Below the pieces are notes generated by a model. That model was given only the letters and a program-made list of their open reading frames with translations. It was not told the origin of the DNA and did no database searches. Both the position numbers and the translations under genes were made by a program. This document shows positions 17,753 to 61,573 of a stretch of DNA of 64,000 nt, piece after piece. Origin of the DNA: Paramecium tetraurelia (taxonomy: Eukaryota); assembly GCA_000165425.1 (NCBI GenBank), contig CT868074.1, forward strand, positions 62,001-126,000, given 5' to 3'. Each line of letters starts with the position of its first letter. Positions within the stretch are counted from its first letter, which is position 1.

Positions 17753-20700
17753 ATGATGAAATTGATATTAATGTGGATTATGGTGCAATGTGCGATTGGA
17801 ATTACAAAAGTTATATCAACCTCATTCACTGAAACCACAACATTCACAGATCATGAAGGTAGAAAATTCAAATATTTAAGGTTGGACAATATCAAACACA
17901 TATAATTTAGGCCATTCATCATGTGGGGGTGTCCAATTGTTCGGTGGTAACAATGAGTTTGATCAGTCAACTGGAATAGTCAAACTGTTTTCACTTCCAC
18001 CTCACTACAAGTTATATCTATCTTTTGTTGTTTATGTGTATAAATTTATTCAATCGTTTTTAGTATTGATATGACATCTGGCTATACTATAAATGTCTTT
18101 TTGGATCAAATGCCTCACCAAATCATTATACCTCTCGCTTCAAGTGATCTATGTGGAACATCCCAAGTAGATTAAACTTACAATGTTGCTATAAATTAAT
18201 TTCATTCTTATCCAACAACCATCATTTCAATATTTGGTTCATAGGATTAGACATTGGTAAATTAAAGTTTGAGAGTAGGTTTACTGGGGAATACGTGATT
18301 TTGTACTATCAGTAGATACTTGTCCATCAAATTGCGATATTTGTTTTTCAGGATCCTAAGCTTTTGAATGTTAATAATGGAAACTCTTTCACTCAGCTTG
18401 GACTAGCACAGACATGAATGATTTTGATAATGGTGGATGGTACACACAGTCACTTGCAGGCCCTACGGAATGCGCTTCAATCCCGATCAAAGGAGGCTAC
18501 AATAGTATGACAGCAGCAGGATCATTAGATAGATAATTTGTTTTGCCACCTCACTCCAGTTTATATTTCATATATAGATTTGTCATTATAGACGGTTGGA
18601 CTGGACAACATGGTAATTTTAAGATAGAAAATGTGAATTTCTATTCTCTTTACAATTAAGTTGGAAATTAAAGGAATTTTTGTGGAAATGGGTTGCAACC
18701 TGATTAATTTCATATACATGGGATAGAGTATCTTCATGATAAGCCAATCATATCACTCCTCATCACTAGTGACTAGGGGGATTCAACCAAATTTTTTGGA
18801 ATAAGAGATTTTTATATTTATGTTTGTAAGAATATGTATATTATTATTTAGATACACCCTCTTCAAGTTGTGGCGATGGAGTGATTGATGAGAATGAATA
18901 ATGTGATGATGGAAATACCTATGCATTTGATGGTTGTTTTATTTGTGAGTACTCATGTGTAGAGGGATGTTCAACATGCATAAATGGGATGTGCTATGAT
19001 TGTTAAGATGGATGGATGTTTGATATGCTAAATGATTAATGCATATATTAATAGTCTAACAATTAGATTGAGTAGGATCAAATAAGGGACAATCAACTTG
19101 ATATTCATAATTACTAACTCAATTGTATTTAATTTAATCAACAAACTTAATGTATTAAATGTAAATTAGGATATGAATTATTTGAATATTGTTAGCCAGT
19201 CTGTGGAGATGGAATTGTGGCAGGTAATGAAGAGTGTGAAATGCCTTAAAAGAATTGCAATAGTTCTTGCTAATATTAATGTTAAGAAGAGTGCAGTGTC
19301 TGTAGTTTTGGTAAATGCCAATAATGCATATCTGGGTATATGTTGTAGATGTCTGAATGCCTACCGAAATGTGGGGATTATCAAATACAAAAGTAGGAGC
19401 AATGTGATGATGGGAATATGGTCAGATTTGAAGGATGCCATAATTGCTAAAATGAATGTTAGGATTAGTGTTTACTTTGCGGATTAGGACAATGTTTAAT
19501 GTGTAAAGAAGGTTGGATATTGGAGAATGGATATTGTGATTCTAAGTGTGGAGATTAACGAATTGCATAAGGTTTGGAGGAATGTGATGATGGGAATGAC
19601 ATTTAATTTGATGGTTGTTACGAGTGTAAATTAGAATGTCCTGATCAATAATGTGCTGTCTGTTATTTGGGTGTTTGTTATAGTTGTCACTTTCCTCTAA
19701 CTTTGTATAAAGATTAATGTTTGGTTATATGCGGAGATGGACTATTGGCATCAGGATATGAAGAATGCGATGATGGGAATGAGATTCCGTATGATGGGTG
19801 TTATAAATGCAAGTACCAATGTTATAAGGAATGTAAAATCTGTGATCGTGGTGTTTGTATGGATGAATGTGATTATGGATATTACTTAGTGAATCAGATA
19901 TGTGTTCCATATTGTGGAGATGGGATTATTACAATTGATGAACAATGTGACGATGCCAATTCTATTGAATACGATGGTTGCCACTAATGTGATTACTCAT
20001 GTCCTCAAAATTGTAATGTCTGTGAAGAAGGTATATGTTCCAAATGCAATTTTGGATTCTATCTGAACGATCAAAAGTGTATCACCAAATGTGGAGATGG
20101 GTTGATTGGATTCCCAGTTGAAGAATGCGATGATTATAATAAAAACAATTAAGACGGGTGCGATTCTAATTGTCTAATTGAAATTGATTGGACTTGTACA
20201 CAACCTTCAGAAGACTCATTTAGTCAATGCTCTTACATGGTTGCTCCATCAATGAAACTTACATATATTACCTAAGAGTATAATTTTTAATATGTTGAAC
20301 TCAGTTTTACTCAAAAAGTCAGATGTTATGTATAGAATTATACATCATTCATCAATGCCACTATTATTAATTTCAATGCTGATTCTTATAGAATTAATAT
20401 CATTGAAACTATGCCAGCTAATTACACCTTGCAATCAGTAATATATGAATTCAAAATAGAAATATTAGAATAAGTTAAATCTGATATTATTTTGGAAATA
20501 GATCTCAATGAATAATTGTATAATGGAATTGAGATGAATTTGATTAAGTTATCATCAAGCATCAAATTGAATTAGCCTAAATTACTGGATCAGAATTAAC
20601 TCACAGTTTCATCATCATTATAAGAAATGAACAAAGTCATTTTATATATCTCATGTAGCATTGGATTGCTATATTTGATTTTTGGTAAGATTGGTGTATT

Positions 20701-21682
20701 CCTAGACATATTGGATATCTTATAGTAGTAATCATATCTGAAATATATAAATGTGGAGATCCCACAGAACTTGAAAATGTACTATGAATCCAGCAATGTC
20801 ATTTCCTTCCAACCATTCTTGCAATTCCTCAATCTTAACACTTTAAGTTCAAATTACGTGGAATTGCAATACATTGAAGCCAAGTACAAGTTCAAAGAAT
20901 ACGAAGTGAATGCTGACATTACTGCAAATCTTTAACTGTTTTTGATCATCGTGACAACTGTATTCATTTCTAAATTCATTTTTAAACAACTACTCAGATA
21001 ACTATATAAAGCCAATATACCAATGATAGAGCAATTCCAATTTAAATTACATTCCACATTTACATTGATAATTTCAAAACTCTATTTCAATTTTGCTAAG
21101 CAAGGATTACAAGTCATCATTCACTCTAACAGTTTTGATTTGCTCTTCGTCTCTTGTATTCAACTGAGTGTCAATTGTGATTTGTACAGAACACTTCTGT
21201 CAGTGTGGATTATTGTTTTCACAACCCTTGTAATAATACAACCCAAGAAGAATAGACAGCAAAATAGTGTTATCATTATTAAGAAACTAACTTACATTAT
21301 GATTCTGGTGTTTTATCAATCTTGCTAGATAGTTCAATCGATATTGTTGTCATTGATTCAAACCTTTTATATGTCATTTTTAATCAGTCAGTAAAAAAGC
21401 ATGTCTCTTTAATTTTTGAAGTAGTTTATGGCTGAAGGATCGATGCTATTCACTCTTGTAATGAACTTTTGCTATTGGGATGAGTTAATGACTTAACTTA
21501 ATTACCAGAATAAAGTAGATATTTCATGGAGTCAAATTGCATTGTTAACTTCATCGTTGGCTTCTATCATTTTGGTAGAGACTTACAATTCTTTTTTGAA
21601 TATTTATAAGAAAGTTTAATAGAAAAAGAAGGGAAAACCTTGTAACTCAAAGTATCCTTTCGAATAAATGATTGTTTTTTGA
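17753..21682 (+). CDS. Cysteine-rich surface protein with Myxococcus-type (DUF4215) repeats and C-terminal TM segments
   Basis: Signal peptide MMKLILMWIMVQCAIG; about seven CGD-x-ECDDGN-x-DGC type repeats at 18870-20170; hydrophobic C-terminal region. Confidence 0.85.
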
Positions 21683-50413: not shown

Positions 50414-50566
50414 TTTTACTCAATTTTATATATATATTTAATTATCTAAATGTTTGTAAATTCACTCAACTAATATCAATTCTAAAATTTTTTTCACATT
50501 TAAAAAGTCAATAAAGGTTTTGAATATAAATTCATAAACATACACAATAAAATTTCATATTCATAT

Positions 50567-52272
50567 TCAAAATTTGGGACCAGCATTAATAACTTCTTAT
50601 GTAGCCTTATCTTCATATTTTTTGAAGTTAATCTAAAATTTCTCTGCCAATTCAAGAACTTATTTATCGAATTCTTCAGGATTTCTAAAATAAATTAAAT
50701 ATTTTACTTCCATGTATTCTTTGGGTTCAAGATTTATGTTGGAATGTTTTTAGCAGTTTTGGGAATAGCAAAATTGAAAATTGGGAAGTTTTCAAATTCT
50801 GCATCCTTTAATTCTCCGCTGTGGATCAAGTCAATGATTCCTCTGGTATATTTTAATGACATTCTTTAACCAACTCCATATTTACCACCAGACCAGCCAG
50901 TGTTGATCAACCAAACCTTGGTATCGTATTTCTTGATCTTTTCAGCCAACATATTGGCATAGAGAGTAGGATGGAGAGCCAAAAATGCTTCTCCAAAGCA
51001 TGCTGAAAAGGTAGCTTATGGCTCTTTGACACCAACTTCAGTTCCGGCAACTTTTGCAGTATATCCAGAAATAAAATGATACATGGCTTATTCTGGTGTC
51101 AACATAGAGACTGGAGGTAAAACACCATAAGCATCACATGTCAAAAAGAAAATATTCTTGGGATGGCCTCCTTAAGCTGGGAATTTAGCTCCTGGAATAT
51201 AATCTAATGGGTAGCTGACTCTTGTGTTTTCTGTAATTGAAATATTTGTGTAATCCACTTCCCTTTTTTCTTCTGAATAATATTCAATATTCTCCAAAAC
51301 AGCACCAAATCTAACTGCATTATAGATTTCTGGCTCTTTTTCCTTTGAGAGGTCAACACATTTTGCATAACAACCTCCTTCAATATTGAAGATGCCATTA
51401 TCAGACCAGGCATGTTCATCATCTCCAATAAGTCTTCTCTTTGGATCAGCGCTGAGGGTTGTTTTACCTGTGCCACTCAATCCAAATAATAAGGTAACAT
51501 CTCCGTTTTCTCCTTCATTGGCAGAACTATGTAATGTGAGTATTCCTTATTTTGGGAATAAATAATGAGTGACTCCAAACACTCCTTTCTTCATTTCACC
51601 AGCATATTAAGTTCCTAAAATGACCATTTTTCTTTCAGTCAAATTAACAGCAACACAGCCTTCTGATTTGATTCCTTCAATGGGTTTCTAAATTGTTTAT
51701 GGACCAGCATTGAAAATGTAAAAATCAACATCTCCGCTGAAATCCTTCTTTAGTTCCTCGTCTGTTGGTCTAATCAGCATATTCTTCATGAACAATGCAT
51801 GATAAGGTCGAGTGCAAAATACTCTAATTCTTAATCTATAATTAACATCCCATCCAGCATATCCATCTATAATGAACAACTAAATGATTAAAATCAAATG
51901 GTTACTTTTTCTTTGTTATTTAAATACTCAAGAGCAATCTTTTCAACTTCATTGTATGAGTCTTGGCTTAAACCAATGTTTACATCACCCCACCAAACAT
52001 CTCTTTCTGTGACTTCATCCTTTATGATTCTCTTATCCTTAGGAACACGACTAAATCATAGAATTATATTTATACCCGCATTTCTTTCCTGAGTATGCAA
52101 CTAAAGCTCCAGTGTTATTGATGGAATCTGGTCTTACTGTTGGATCCTCGCTTTATGGCTATGACATTGAGAGCTCATAAATAAGTGGAACACTTGGGTT
52201 TCTGTACACTGTCGCATTGCGAAGTCCCCATTTTGTTAAGAATTCTTAGACTTAGATTGTTTGATTCTCCAT
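50567..52272 (-). CDS. PCK1: Phosphoenolpyruvate carboxykinase (ATP)
   Basis: [75 protein letters not shown]. Confidence 0.97.
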
Positions 52273-56351: not shown

Positions 56352-56501
56352 NNNNNNNNNNNNNNNNNNNNNNNNNNNNNNNNNNNNNNNNNNNNNNNNN
56401 NNNNNNNNNNNNNNNNNNNNNNNNNNNNNNNNNNNNNNNNNNNNNNNNNNNNNNNNNNNNNNNNNNNNNNNNNNNNNNNNNNNNNNNNNNNNNNNNNNNN
56501 N
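56352..56501. other. Assembly gap (N run)
   Basis: Run of Ns. Confidence 0.99.
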
Positions 56502-57768
56502 ATTAAATGAGTTATGTTTTTGAAATGGAAATTGAGTTTAAGAAAATGATTTTAATTCCTTAATGATTAACTAAAATTAATTTAAATATTTTTTCTCTCC
56601 TTTTTGATCAATTGATAGGCGAATTCAATTTACTGTTATATATCTATTATTTCCTCTAAAATTTGATAAAGATTATGAACGTTTTGATTTTATATATCGT
56701 GAAATACATTAAATATTAAAAATATATATATATAAAAAATAAATTAACATTCCAATTTAATATTATTGTAAATAAAAAAATTCTATTTCAGATTTAAAAA
56801 CTGAGATAATATGTTATTTTCATAAATCTAATTATTATATGTTAGAATAAATTTTCAATATGAGATGTAAATAAATTTGTAGGTTCTGTTAGATCGATGT
56901 ATATTGCACTAGTGAGAAAAACTTTAATATGTATGATATATCATCAGCTGCAATCAATTGTACGAATTACTAAATGTTTCTGGAAAGTGGCAAAAGATTA
57001 GTTTCTATTCTGAATAGGAAAGAGATTTTTAGTAAAGATATATAAACTTAGGATTTATCGTTAAAGATATTATGATAAAAATGGATGACCAAAATATTAT
57101 GATATTATTTAAATTAGATGGAAATAATGAAGCATTTCAATAATATTTTGAGAATGATCAATATTTGGATTACCTTTTGATTATTTAAGGTTACAAATTT
57201 TTTTATAGCACTTGAAAATCGTTTGAAATTTCTTTGAGTAGAAAAACTGTTTTCAGTTTTTCAAAGGATAGAAAATTAAGTTGCTGATAGAAAATAAGTA
57301 ATGTCTTAACTATTAAAAAAATTAAAGAGAAAACGATAGGATTAAGATAGTGATGATGTATTTAATTTAACTTATTAGAATATTGAATCACTGTTACAGA
57401 AAAATGCTTTCCAATTAAATAGATAGCAGCCTAGTACCCTACTGAAAAACATTGAAATAGCTTCAAAAAAGATAAGTTAAATATTCAATTAAATTATGAT
57501 AATATTGTGTATTTGTATTGTTATCTGTTAATTAAATCTTTATAGAACTGATTAAAATCCTATTGTTTATATAATAAAGTAGAAGTTTTTGGGTGGGATA
57601 TAAATATATATTTTAATTTATAGTTCTAACTTATTTATTACGAGTATTAAACTTTTTTCATATAAATAATCTTTCACAAAACTCTTCTTGGTGATTCCTA
57701 TAATTATTCTATAGAATTTATATATTAAATTAATATTAATTACATCATCAAAAATATTAATTGTTCAG

Positions 57769-58744
57769 ATGGAGAAAACAAAGATAATTGTTGCTATAAC
57801 TCTAATTTTAGGTGCAATTAGTGTTGCCATAAACACAACGGATAGGAAATTGATATTAACTGAGTCTCAGAATGATTCATTTTTAAAGAAACTTAATATT
57901 GTAAATAATATTATTGAATTTCCAGAATACAGTTAATGAACAAAAAGAAGGCATGGCTTATAGAGAAGCTTATGAAGATGGATAAATTGAAGGAATGAGA
58001 TATAGAGAGATTGAAGATTAAGAAATTTAAGAAGAAAATCATATTGAAGGCATGGCATACAGAGAAGTTTATGAAGATGGATAAATTGAAGGAATGAGAT
58101 ACAGAGAGATTGAAGACTAAGAAATTTAAGAAGAAAATCATATTGAAGGCATGGCTTATAGAGAAATCTATTAAGATGGATAAATTGAAGGAATGAGATA
58201 TAGAGAGATTGAAGATTAAAAAATTTAATAAGAAAATCATATTGAAGGCATGGCTTACAGAGAAGTTTCTGAAGATGGATAAATTGAAGGAATGAGATAC
58301 AGAGAGATTGAAGACTAAGAAATTTAAGAAGAAAATCATAATGAAGGCATGGCTTATAGAGAAGTCTATTAAGATGGATAAATTGAAGGAATGAGATACA
58401 GAGAGATTGAAGACTAAGAAATTTAAGAAGAAAATCATATTGAAGGCATGGCTTATAGAGAAATCTATTAAGATGGATAAATTGAAGGAATGAGATATAG
58501 AGAGATTGAAGATTAAGAAATTTAATAAGAAAATCATATTGAAGGCATGGCTTATAGAGAAATCTATTAAGATGGATAAATTGAAGGAATGAGATACAGA
58601 GAGATTGAAGACTAAGAAATTTAAGAAGAAAATCATATTGAAGGTATGGCATACAGAGAAGTTTATGAAGATGGATAAATTGAAGGAATGACATATAGAG
58701 AAATAGAAACATCATAGAGCAATTAAGACTATGTGATATTTTGA
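57769..58744 (+). CDS. Secreted acidic tandem-repeat protein (316 aa), candidate multi-core peptide precursor
   Basis: MEKTKIIVAITLILGAISVA signal peptide; 25-nt intron 57901-57925; 33-aa repeats EGMAYRE.YEDGQIEGMRYREIEDQEIQEENHI; TGA at 58742-58744. Confidence 0.85.
57947..58708 (+). repeat. 99-bp coding tandem repeat, 7 full copies plus one partial copy
   Basis: Unit starts (GAAGG[C/T]ATGGC) at 57947, 58046, 58145, 58244, 58343, 58442, 58541 and 58640. Confidence 0.97.
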
Positions 58745-60784: not shown

Positions 60785-61573
60785 ATGAGGGACATNNNNN
60801 NNNNNNNNNNNNNNNNNNNNNNNNNNNNNNNNNNNNNNNNNNNNNNNNNNNNNNNNNNNNNNNNNNNNNNNNNNNNNNNNNNNNNNNNNNNNNNNNNNNN
60901 NNNNNNNNNNNNNNNNNNNNNNNNNNNNNNNNNNNNNNNNNNNNNNNNNNNNNNNNNNNNNNNNNNNNNNNNNNNNNNNNNNNNNNNNNNNNNNNNNNNN
61001 NNNNNNNNNNNNNNNNNNNNNNNNNNNNNNNNNNNNNNNNNNNNNNNNNNNNNNNNNNNNNNNNNNNNNNNNNNNNNNNNNNNNNNNNNNNNNNNNNNNN
61101 NNNNNNNNNNNNNNNNNNNNNNNNNNNNNNNNNNNNNNNNNNNNNNNNNNNNNNNNNNNNNNNNNNNNNNNNNNNNNNNNNNNNNNNNNNNNNNNNNNNN
61201 NNNNGAGCTTCAAATCTTTGGAAAAGGGGAGTAATAGAAGAACTCATGTAATCATATAGATTCTAGAACGAATGATGATGAGGAGATGGGCGCCCACAAT
61301 ATTTTCGATCATAATGTTGAGTCACAGAATGGAAATAATGGAAGTATTTTTTCAATCTTTTTTCAAATACATATTTAATAAATCATCACAAAGATCAGAA
61401 TGCGCAGTGAAATTTCAACAATTTACCAATATAAACATTAAAGGAATGGGTTACTTGGCTAGTTTTAATTAATTCATACGTCCCCAATGCTATAAATTCT
61501 TAAATCATTGGGCATTAGCGATTAAACATTTGTGTTAAATGAAATGGAACCTAGATTTACCAATAAGCGATGA
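60785..61573 (+). CDS. Hypothetical protein spanning an assembly gap
   Basis: ATG at 60785 just before the gap; 123-codon code-6 frame at 61205-61573 after it (ELQIFGKGEQQ...RTNDDEEMGAHNIF). Confidence 0.35.
60796..61204. other. Assembly gap (N run)
   Basis: Run of Ns. Confidence 0.99.

Follow-up and report, generated by a model that had tools for sequence, protein, structure and literature searches.

A 64,000-nt stretch of Paramecium tetraurelia DNA (contig CT868074.1, positions 62,001 to 126,000 of the forward strand; hereafter the window, with positions counted from its first letter) carries at 57769-58744 (+) a two-exon gene for a protein of 316 amino acids with 16 copies of the six-residue core G-M-x-Y-R-E. 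The gene is transcribed and spliced, and its core is conserved in unrelated secreted proteins of other organisms. The first-pass annotation of this DNA had proposed a ciliate-specific peptide system. This does not hold, as the same core occurs in Negativicutes, in PEGA proteins of Methanomicrobia and in the tails of hydrolases; the core is not ciliate-specific, and what is new here is its cross-domain occurrence with unrelated spacers. GMxYRE looks like an extracytoplasmic short linear motif, present in one to sixteen copies on proteins with unrelated domains. We tentatively suggest that it may be read by a papain-like (C1) cysteine peptidase.

Gene structure, transcription and splicing

The gene reads on the + strand under genetic code 6, in which TAA and TAG encode Gln. 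Exon 1 (57769..57900, 44 codons) runs from the start codon at 57769 through the predicted signal peptide into a short pro-like region. A 25-nt GT..AG intron (57901..57925, GTAAAT...TTCCAG, 20% GC) comes next, starting on a codon boundary, and exon 2 (57926..58744) provides 272 codons and a TGA stop (58742-58744). The two exons join without a frame shift to give a spliced coding sequence of 951 nt, and the frame would stop at 57937-57939 if the intron were kept.

Three stranded oligo-dT RNA sequencing (RNA-seq) runs with the same species label (58-nt reads) were mapped on 57450-58045, yielding 420, 396 and 324 reads. The first mate lies on the minus strand in all of them, which for the usual stranded libraries indicates RNA of the + strand. 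Read depth is 0 up to 57729, 0.4-2 in 57730-57749 and 3-14 in 57750-57769, placing the transcription start at about 57730-57750. The 5′ untranslated region (57740..57768) is thus only about 20-35 nt long, and no ATG occurs in 57700-57768, the 69 bases before the start codon. Within exon 1 the depth is 15-39 as far as about 57889 and drops to 3-6 in the final bin of the exon; it is about 1 in the bin 57910-57929, and coverage resumes in exon 2. Loose read ends at 57900 carry on into the sequence from 57926 (4+5 reads), and those at 57926 follow on from the sequence up to 57900 (4+3 reads). Over the three runs this makes 16 read ends across the junction. Together, the drop in depth and the read ends spanning 57900|57926 indicate that the predicted intron is removed from most transcripts. 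The gene is transcribed from the + strand and spliced exactly at the predicted 25-nt intron, bearing out the code-6 structure that had been drawn up from the letters alone.

The minus strand of the array is also open under code 6, with open reading frames (ORFs) at 57674-58636 (320 amino acids) and 57867-58715 (282 amino acids), both rich in F, L, S and I. Coding on this strand was rejected, since all RNA reads indicate + strand RNA.

A tandem array of sixteen cores

Tandem Repeats Finder (TRF) places the array at 57947..58708 (+), with a period of 99 bp (33 amino acids), 7.7 copies, 93% matches, 0 indels and a score of 1293. It is the sole tandem repeat with a score of at least 100 in the window, and period and copy number are those first read from the translation. 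Each unit contains one A-type and one R-type core, separated by acidic spacers of 8 and 13 amino acids. A six-frame motif scan under code 6 recovered 16 G-M-x-Y-R-E cores of 18 nt each (57950..58702), all in one + frame: eight GMAYRE, seven GMRYRE and one GMTYRE, in agreement with the alternation of A and R, ending in T, described before. The first eight cores start at 57950, 57992, 58049, 58091, 58148, 58190, 58247 and 58289, and the other eight at 58346, 58388, 58445, 58487, 58544, 58586, 58643 and 58685. Glu precedes the core in all 16 copies, and no GM.YRE was found outside the array frame anywhere in the window. A degenerate DNA pattern describing two cores matches the window 8 times, compared with 0 matches in 100 shuffles.

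The proposal that the cores are conserved and the spacers free is partly upheld within the array. Relative to the unit consensus, the cores show 11 synonymous and 1 non-synonymous codon differences, the latter being an R to T change at the variable position, and the spacers show 7 synonymous and 13 non-synonymous differences. Fisher's test on this contrast gives p = 0.003 when every cell is counted, but significance is lost when only distinct sites are compared (5/1 vs 3/7; p = 0.12). The array itself is therefore suggestive only of selection on the cores.

Related arrays on hydrolase-like proteins

We then searched the window protein (P0002) against 5.8 billion proteins, which gave a single match at E<=0.01 among 8000 scored candidates, P0003. 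Pairwise BLASTP of the two (E 5e-12) aligns them only at the GM(A/R)YRE cores, leaving the spacers unmatched, and runs through the C-terminal tails, which are alike. In the window protein this tail is a non-repeat segment of 13 amino acids (58703..58741, +, from the translation) with a Q-S-x-Q-D string that resembles the end of P0003. It contains no hydrophobic anchor, as no hydrophobic window lies outside residues 1-30.

Two longer relatives, P0004 and P0005 (2 matches among 1915 candidates), consist of a signal peptide, a domain of about 230 amino acids and five to six cores that run to the C terminus. The domain matches scytalidopepsin B (PDB 1s2b) at E 3.8e-4, and Gln53 and Glu136 of the 1s2b chain, which we take to be the catalytic pair, are identical in the aligned query domain. 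The Pfam model PF01828 (Peptidase_A4) scores 21.4 bits, below its cut-off of 22.3, and P0005 falls among Peptidase_A4 clusters in the ESM Atlas, which we treat as a lead only. An AlphaFold2 (AF2) model of P0005 from a 5-row alignment was unusable (predicted local distance difference test (pLDDT) score 32.8). We therefore call the P0004/P0005 domain eqolisin-like rather than a proven member of the family.

In an alignment of P0003-5, P0022 and P0027, the GM(A/R/K)YRE cores are invariant, while the spacers range from 4 to 31 amino acids and vary in composition, being rich in P, Q, R, S and A where those of the ciliate protein are rich in E, D and Q. The conservation of cores over spacers, left suggestive by the array, is thus seen among these homologues. 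The last core of the eqolisin fusions ends 1-9 residues from the C terminus. The window protein shares with these eqolisin/G1 fusions the homologous core arrays extending to the C terminus and the alternation of A, R and K at the variable position, but is devoid of the peptidase-like domain of about 230 amino acids. A further metagenomic protein, P0028, combines a signal peptide and a GH25-like domain, weakly matched (Pfam E 0.035; 1jfx E 0.23), with a C-terminal pair of one degenerate and one canonical core. Its core lies 25 residues from the C terminus.

The core in archaea and bacteria

The two-core DNA pattern retrieved 8 metagenome loci, 6 of which encode a PEGA surface protein with a signal peptide, two to four copies of EGMAYRE(V/A)YT-PTTQA, an anchor at the C terminus and, between them, four to five PEGA domains; the other two are L001 and L003, described below. 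In the archaeal PEGA proteins the motif sits at the end far from the membrane anchor. Contigs representing one prokaryote genome per species gave 4 loci, 2 in Methanomicrobiales metagenome-assembled genomes (MAGs), again in PEGA proteins, and 2 in Acidaminococcales MAGs. No match was found in viral contigs. Three loci were set aside: L001, a 25-residue ORF with its second core out of frame that we take as chance; L013, with Ser instead of Arg in the core; and L022, with a single GMTYRE in an ORF without a visible signal. A fourth, L003:461-559 on a metagenome contig of 66% GC, is a 70-residue ORF with one GMAYRE, two GMTYRE and one GMTYRA spaced 4 residues apart. No signal peptide was seen in it; it was likewise set aside, and may be either a DNA repeat or coding sequence.

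The proteins from Acidaminococcales measure about 200 amino acids, with a signal peptide, one to three cores, a degenerate core and a helical domain. A DUF2680-bearing protein has a homologous domain, and there the degenerate core takes the canonical form. An AF2 model of one of the Acidaminococcales proteins, P0009, gives pLDDT <50 to residues 1-109, where all the cores lie, and 80-95 to the C-terminal helical domain; a Foldseek search of this model against the PDB returned no match at E<=0.001. Paralogous small secreted proteins stand in tandem in an Acidaminococcaceae MAG (L012:2899-3540 and L012:3590-4156), one with three cores and the other with one. Across the Acidaminococcales family, copy number varies from 1 to 3 through clean insertions or deletions of core-plus-spacer units.

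Profile searches extended this set. A word-indexed search gave 27 matches at E<=10 among 519 candidates, and a scan of 1.84 billion representatives gave 4 proteins at E<=0.001 with a profile that modelled all 35 alignment columns rather than the pure core. P0026, P0029 and P0030 are small lipoproteins in which a single core comes right after the lipobox, and P0025 (two cores) and P0031 (three cores) are small bacterial proteins with little beyond the cores.

We next ran a single-core EGMAYRE DNA pattern on 401 sampled genomes from each of two classes, those of an archaeal MAG (G001) and of an Acidaminococcaceae MAG (G002), with the backwards pattern as control. In the archaeal class the pattern occurs in 5/401 genomes (control 1), and each of the five matches sits in the N-terminal linker of a PEGA protein; apart from the motif, these linkers differ from one another. 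In the bacterial class it occurs in 11/401 genomes (control 0). These 11 matches comprise seven chagasin-type inhibitors, three DUF2680-like secreted proteins and one phage protein. The phage match (L039:143-2017, from a Negativicutes genome) places one EGMAYRE inside a cytoplasmic head-tail connector (Pfam E 7e-135), which we take as chance background of the single-core pattern.

The seven inhibitors (L033-L038 and L040) come from the Negativicutes genomes G523, G584, G564, G616, G500, G600 and G801. Six of them pass the chagasin-family model PF09394 (MEROPS I42; E 3e-12 to 6e-9), the seventh being a truncated ORF without a Pfam match, and L034, the only one searched further, matches amoebiasin-2 (3m86) at E 3e-6. 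In these proteins the motif directly follows the signal peptide, so that the predicted mature protein begins with EGMAYRE. Five aligned inhibitors are 27-36% identical, apart from one close pair, and their longest invariant block is A-EGMAYRE, which is longer than the chagasin signature loops. We know of no role for an N-terminal motif in chagasin-type inhibition. The window protein thus has in common with the inhibitors an identical EGMAYRE and predicted export, and differs from them in carrying 16 cores instead of one and no chagasin domain.

Over all groups we collected 74 distinct core contexts. Five of the six core residues (G, M, Y, R and E) are invariant; the variable position is Ala in 62 contexts, Arg in 7, Lys in 2 and Thr, Gly and Val in 1 each, and position -1 is Glu in 42/74. 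The prokaryotic proteins have their first core 19-52 residues from the start, with the exception of L032 (186). Inspection by eye finds export signals in P0005, P0006-P0011, P0026, P0029, P0030, P0028, P0031, the PEGA proteins and the inhibitors, as well as in the window protein; P0025 shows no hydrophobic N terminus or lipobox. No Pfam or NCBIfam family model covers the motif. A full-text literature search for the motif strings found no paper describing it, the matches being unrelated as judged from the titles listed, and literature searches on secreted repeat proteins of Paramecium and on N-terminal extensions of chagasins returned nothing pertinent.

The ciliate product and its possible processing

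The ciliate product begins with a predicted signal peptide of about 21 residues (57769..57831, +), recognised from hydropathy and the -3/-1 rule. It has a basic n-region, a 16-residue hydrophobic core and small residues at -3 and -1, and the signal-peptidase cut was placed after residue 21 by hand with the same heuristic rule. The highest 15-residue Kyte-Doolittle window lies at residues 6-20 (mean 2.8) and marks the sole hydrophobic segment of the 316 residues. After residue 30 no such window rises above -0.53, and there is consequently no second membrane segment and no glycosylphosphatidylinositol-type tail. The mature protein of about 295 residues has a pI of 4.26, a net charge of -53 and 82/295 acidic residues. 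It contains no Cys, Trp or Pro, and has two N-x-S/T sequons near its N terminus. With disorder judged from composition only, the product would be soluble, secreted or lumenal to a vacuole or granule, intrinsically disordered and strongly acidic. Pfam and NCBIfam searches of the window protein (P0001, P0002) gave only sub-threshold matches driven by repeat composition, and no chagasin, eqolisin or PEGA domain was detected in it by Pfam or by tblastn of P0004 and P0005.

Such a composition could belong to a granin-like or matrix protein, a bulk acidic filler with low affinity for cations, in which composition alone matters and the likeness of the motif is coincidental. Signal peptide, extreme acidity and likely disorder are features that the window protein shares with granins, and its pI, net charge, acidic content and want of Cys, Trp and Pro all suit such a role. 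Granins lack a short core that is repeated and strictly conserved, and their cleavage takes place at dibasic sites, of which the body of the window protein has none. Its cores, moreover, change almost only synonymously where the spacers change residues. The identical core, preceded by Glu and often followed by V/A-Y, also occurs in the non-acidic P/T-rich linkers of archaeal proteins and in the P/Q/R-rich tails of the eqolisin-like proteins, and in both prokaryote classes sampled the motif pattern outnumbers its backwards control. We consider a filler role improbable.

The first-pass annotation had instead read the gene as a multi-core precursor, noting the hydrophobic N-terminal signal and the strings DRKL and FLKKL, all of which are present in the translation, the latter two in the pro-like region. 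On this account a prepro-protein would be cut into short bioactive GMAY/GMRY peptides for signalling, mating or defence. Yeast alpha-factor, fungal ustiloxin-type precursors and animal multi-copy neuropeptide precursors are Kex2-processed or prohormone examples of this plan, and the window protein resembles them in its signal peptide, short pro-region, tandem conserved cores and freer, often acidic spacers. The cores are also conserved in the homologous arrays, and small secreted bacterial proteins that are almost all core do exist (P0031 with three cores, P0025 with two). The window protein departs from Kex2-type precursors in having no dibasic sites at its cores. Dibasic pairs occur only as RK at residue 26 and KK at residue 40, both in the pro-region ahead of the array; the basic residues of the array are all inside cores, and no dibasic or other conserved cleavage site flanks the cores within it, as the same annotation had pointed out. 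Precursors of ribosomally synthesized and post-translationally modified peptides (fungal dikaritin-type, plant BURP-type) have a tailoring enzyme. As the annotation had also remarked, none is found nearby: a Pfam scan of the 14 longest code-6 ORFs of the window detected neither a tailoring enzyme nor a receptor.

PMC4142616 ties ciliate dense-core granule proproteins (Tetrahymena Grl, Paramecium trichocyst matrix) to the cathepsins CTH3 and CTH4 and the carboxypeptidase CAR1, and links ciliate proprotein processing to cathepsins rather than convertases. The missing dibasic sites are therefore no argument against processing. The window protein is like these granule proproteins, matured by cathepsin-type and not convertase-type proteolysis according to the same source, in having a signal peptide and the character of acidic cargo. 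It is unlike them in being a pure short-motif array, not coiled-coil or crystallin-type, and no similarity to them appeared in the Pfam and protein searches run. A further point against a hormone precursor is that GMxYRE, unlike a hormone core, also occurs singly on folded prokaryotic proteins. Release of a hormone from the N terminus of a folded inhibitor or surface protein would make little sense, so that a released hormone is not the general role of the core. The multi-core proposal thus stands as far as an expressed, signal-peptide-bearing protein with repeated cores is concerned and falls as a general hormone function; for the ciliate protein itself we rate release of bioactive peptides as distinctly unlikely.

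A candidate reader of the motif

Several features of the motif point to peptidases. The papain family selects bulky hydrophobic or aromatic residues at P2 and accepts Arg at P1, as in the standard Z-Phe-Arg substrates, and the Y-R of the core, with Tyr placed in P2 and Arg in P1, would fit this preference. The core is found in inhibitors of papain-like peptidases, and the remaining enzymes that carry it are digestive hydrolases (eqolisin-like and, weakly, GH25-like), again suggesting a link to peptidases. The motif keeps suggestive company: an acid peptidase, inhibitors of papain-like peptidases, an enzyme resembling lysozyme and surface proteins that bear it at their outer tips would all come together in a bacterivore's food vacuole or on the surface of its prey.

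We infer from these features that some protein recognises the motif and that this reader is a C1 peptidase, a view that we hold tentatively, as plausible and still short of probable. The working parts of the ciliate protein would then be the 16 copies of a short linear motif with the consensus [Q/H]-x-E-G-M-x-Y-R-E, and the acidic spacers would only space and solubilise them. The motif would be an extracytoplasmic recognition element common to the three domains of life, its likely reader a papain-like peptidase of the digestive or secretory pathway, and the ciliate protein a 16-valent substrate, competitor or cathepsin-processed precursor. Cleavage after each Y-R would release alternating acidic peptides of 14 and 19 residues; alternatively, the protein may buffer or occupy cathepsins.

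A number of observations weigh against this reading. Invariance at five of six residues exceeds the usual demand of broad digestive C1 peptidases, and such strictness would suit a modifying enzyme or a dedicated receptor no less. Sorting or substrate targeting could equally be the purpose of the tails carried by the eqolisin-like peptidase and the lysozyme-like protein. The Pfam scan of the 14 longest ORFs contains no C1 peptidase, and tblastn of P0004 and P0005 on the window at E<0.01 matched only the repeats, giving no eqolisin-domain homologue. A ciliate homologue did not turn up either, in collections that contain few ciliate genes read under code 6. Sharing across domains could reflect convergence, transfer or, for single copies, partly chance; one of the 11 bacterial single-core matches is, after all, the cytoplasmic phage protein. 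The loss of significance of the core-spacer contrast on distinct sites belongs here as well.

The strictness of the core would also be matched by a multivalent ligand that works without proteolysis, its cores docking on a lumenal or extracellular receptor (sortilin/Vps10-type, lectin-like or a component of the prey surface). The 16-copy protein would act by avidity, agglutinating prey or else bringing cargo into a lysosome-related organelle by sorting or aggregation, and the hydrolase tails would be targeting tags. Short sorting determinants borne on propeptides are known from plant and yeast vacuolar hydrolases. The cores of the eqolisin-like proteins lie at the extreme C terminus, 1-9 residues from the end (25 in P0028), the motif appears to reside in disordered or low-complexity sequence, five invariant positions would suit a specific binding pocket, and the PEGA motif is held at the end far from the membrane anchor. 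A eukaryotic sorting receptor, however, leaves the motif in archaea and bacteria unexplained unless by mimicry, Methanomicrobia, diderm Negativicutes and lipoprotein-bearing bacteria are not known to share an envelope polymer, and no candidate receptor turned up in the analyses made. We regard this explanation as rather unlikely.

Strict invariance of G, M, Y, R and E is also typical of enzyme recognition sequences, and the core Tyr, invariant and always in an extracytoplasmic context, could be a site of post-translational modification (cross-linking, O-glycosylation, sulfation, or oxidation of Tyr or Met). No extracytoplasmic modifying enzyme is known to be common to ciliates, archaea and Firmicutes, and no gene for one lies next to the bacterial and archaeal genes in the loci read, one neighbour having been scanned in Pfam. 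These neighbours are an unassigned 593/560-residue ORF and a 339-residue ORF upstream in L009/L012, the Pfam-scanned PEGA protein in L011 and further unassigned ORFs. We consider a modification site a highly improbable role. Two further readings were rejected: a prepilin-peptidase-type site, as no hydrophobic segment follows the motif, and a precursor for a Glu/Tyr cross-link of the pyrroloquinoline quinone type, as the proteins are exported and Glu at -1 is not invariant. The latter is also disfavoured by the neighbouring genes, among which (one scanned in Pfam) no radical S-adenosylmethionine enzyme gene was recognised by eye.

Returning to a C1 peptidase as reader, the cross-domain distribution could be accommodated if GMxYRE were a handle used on both sides of a digestive conflict between phagotrophic protists and their prey. 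Predators would carry the motif on vacuolar hydrolases, in their tails, and this ciliate also on a stand-alone 16-copy protein, where a papain-like cathepsin would read it for processing, activation or buffering. Grazed bacteria and archaea would display it on the tips of surface proteins and at the N termini of chagasin-type inhibitors as bait or decoy, and mimicry would account for its presence in ciliates, archaea and Firmicutes alike. We think such a cross-domain handle unlikely.

Surroundings of the gene

The window has a GC content of 27.4%, and its use of code 6 and the 25-nt intron suggest macronuclear DNA of the Paramecium type. Two runs of N flank the gene, at 56352-56501 (150 bases, about 1.3 kb upstream) and 60796-61204 (409 bases, about 2 kb downstream); they represent either assembly gaps or withheld stretches, and genes there are not readable. 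Among the 14 longest ORFs, Pfam recognised RCC1, PP2C, DUF4215, TPR, PEPCK and protein kinase domains. The ORF at 18773-21682 (+) contains seven cysteine-rich DUF4215 repeats (Pfam E 1e-67) followed by a hydrophobic C-terminal half, and is probably a large surface or membrane protein. The ORF at 50494-51927 (-) matches ATP-dependent phosphoenolpyruvate carboxykinase (Pfam E 1e-183), is apparently intronless over about 380 codons and would serve well as a marker for taxonomic placement.

Implications

Secreted tandem-repeat proteins are common, and by itself the gene is modest. The ciliate protein is of a known kind, a secreted tandem-core protein; it is the motif that stands out, and its occurrence across domains is the part worth following. 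In one subgroup of inhibitors it is under tighter conservation than the signature loops of the inhibitor itself. Should digestive or processing cathepsins be its readers, the motif would offer a handle on the maturation of secretory proteins in ciliates, which lack prohormone convertases, would point to possible motif mimicry between grazers and prey, and would supply a simple peptide reagent with which to fish for the reader. The 16-copy Paramecium protein would be the natural starting point.

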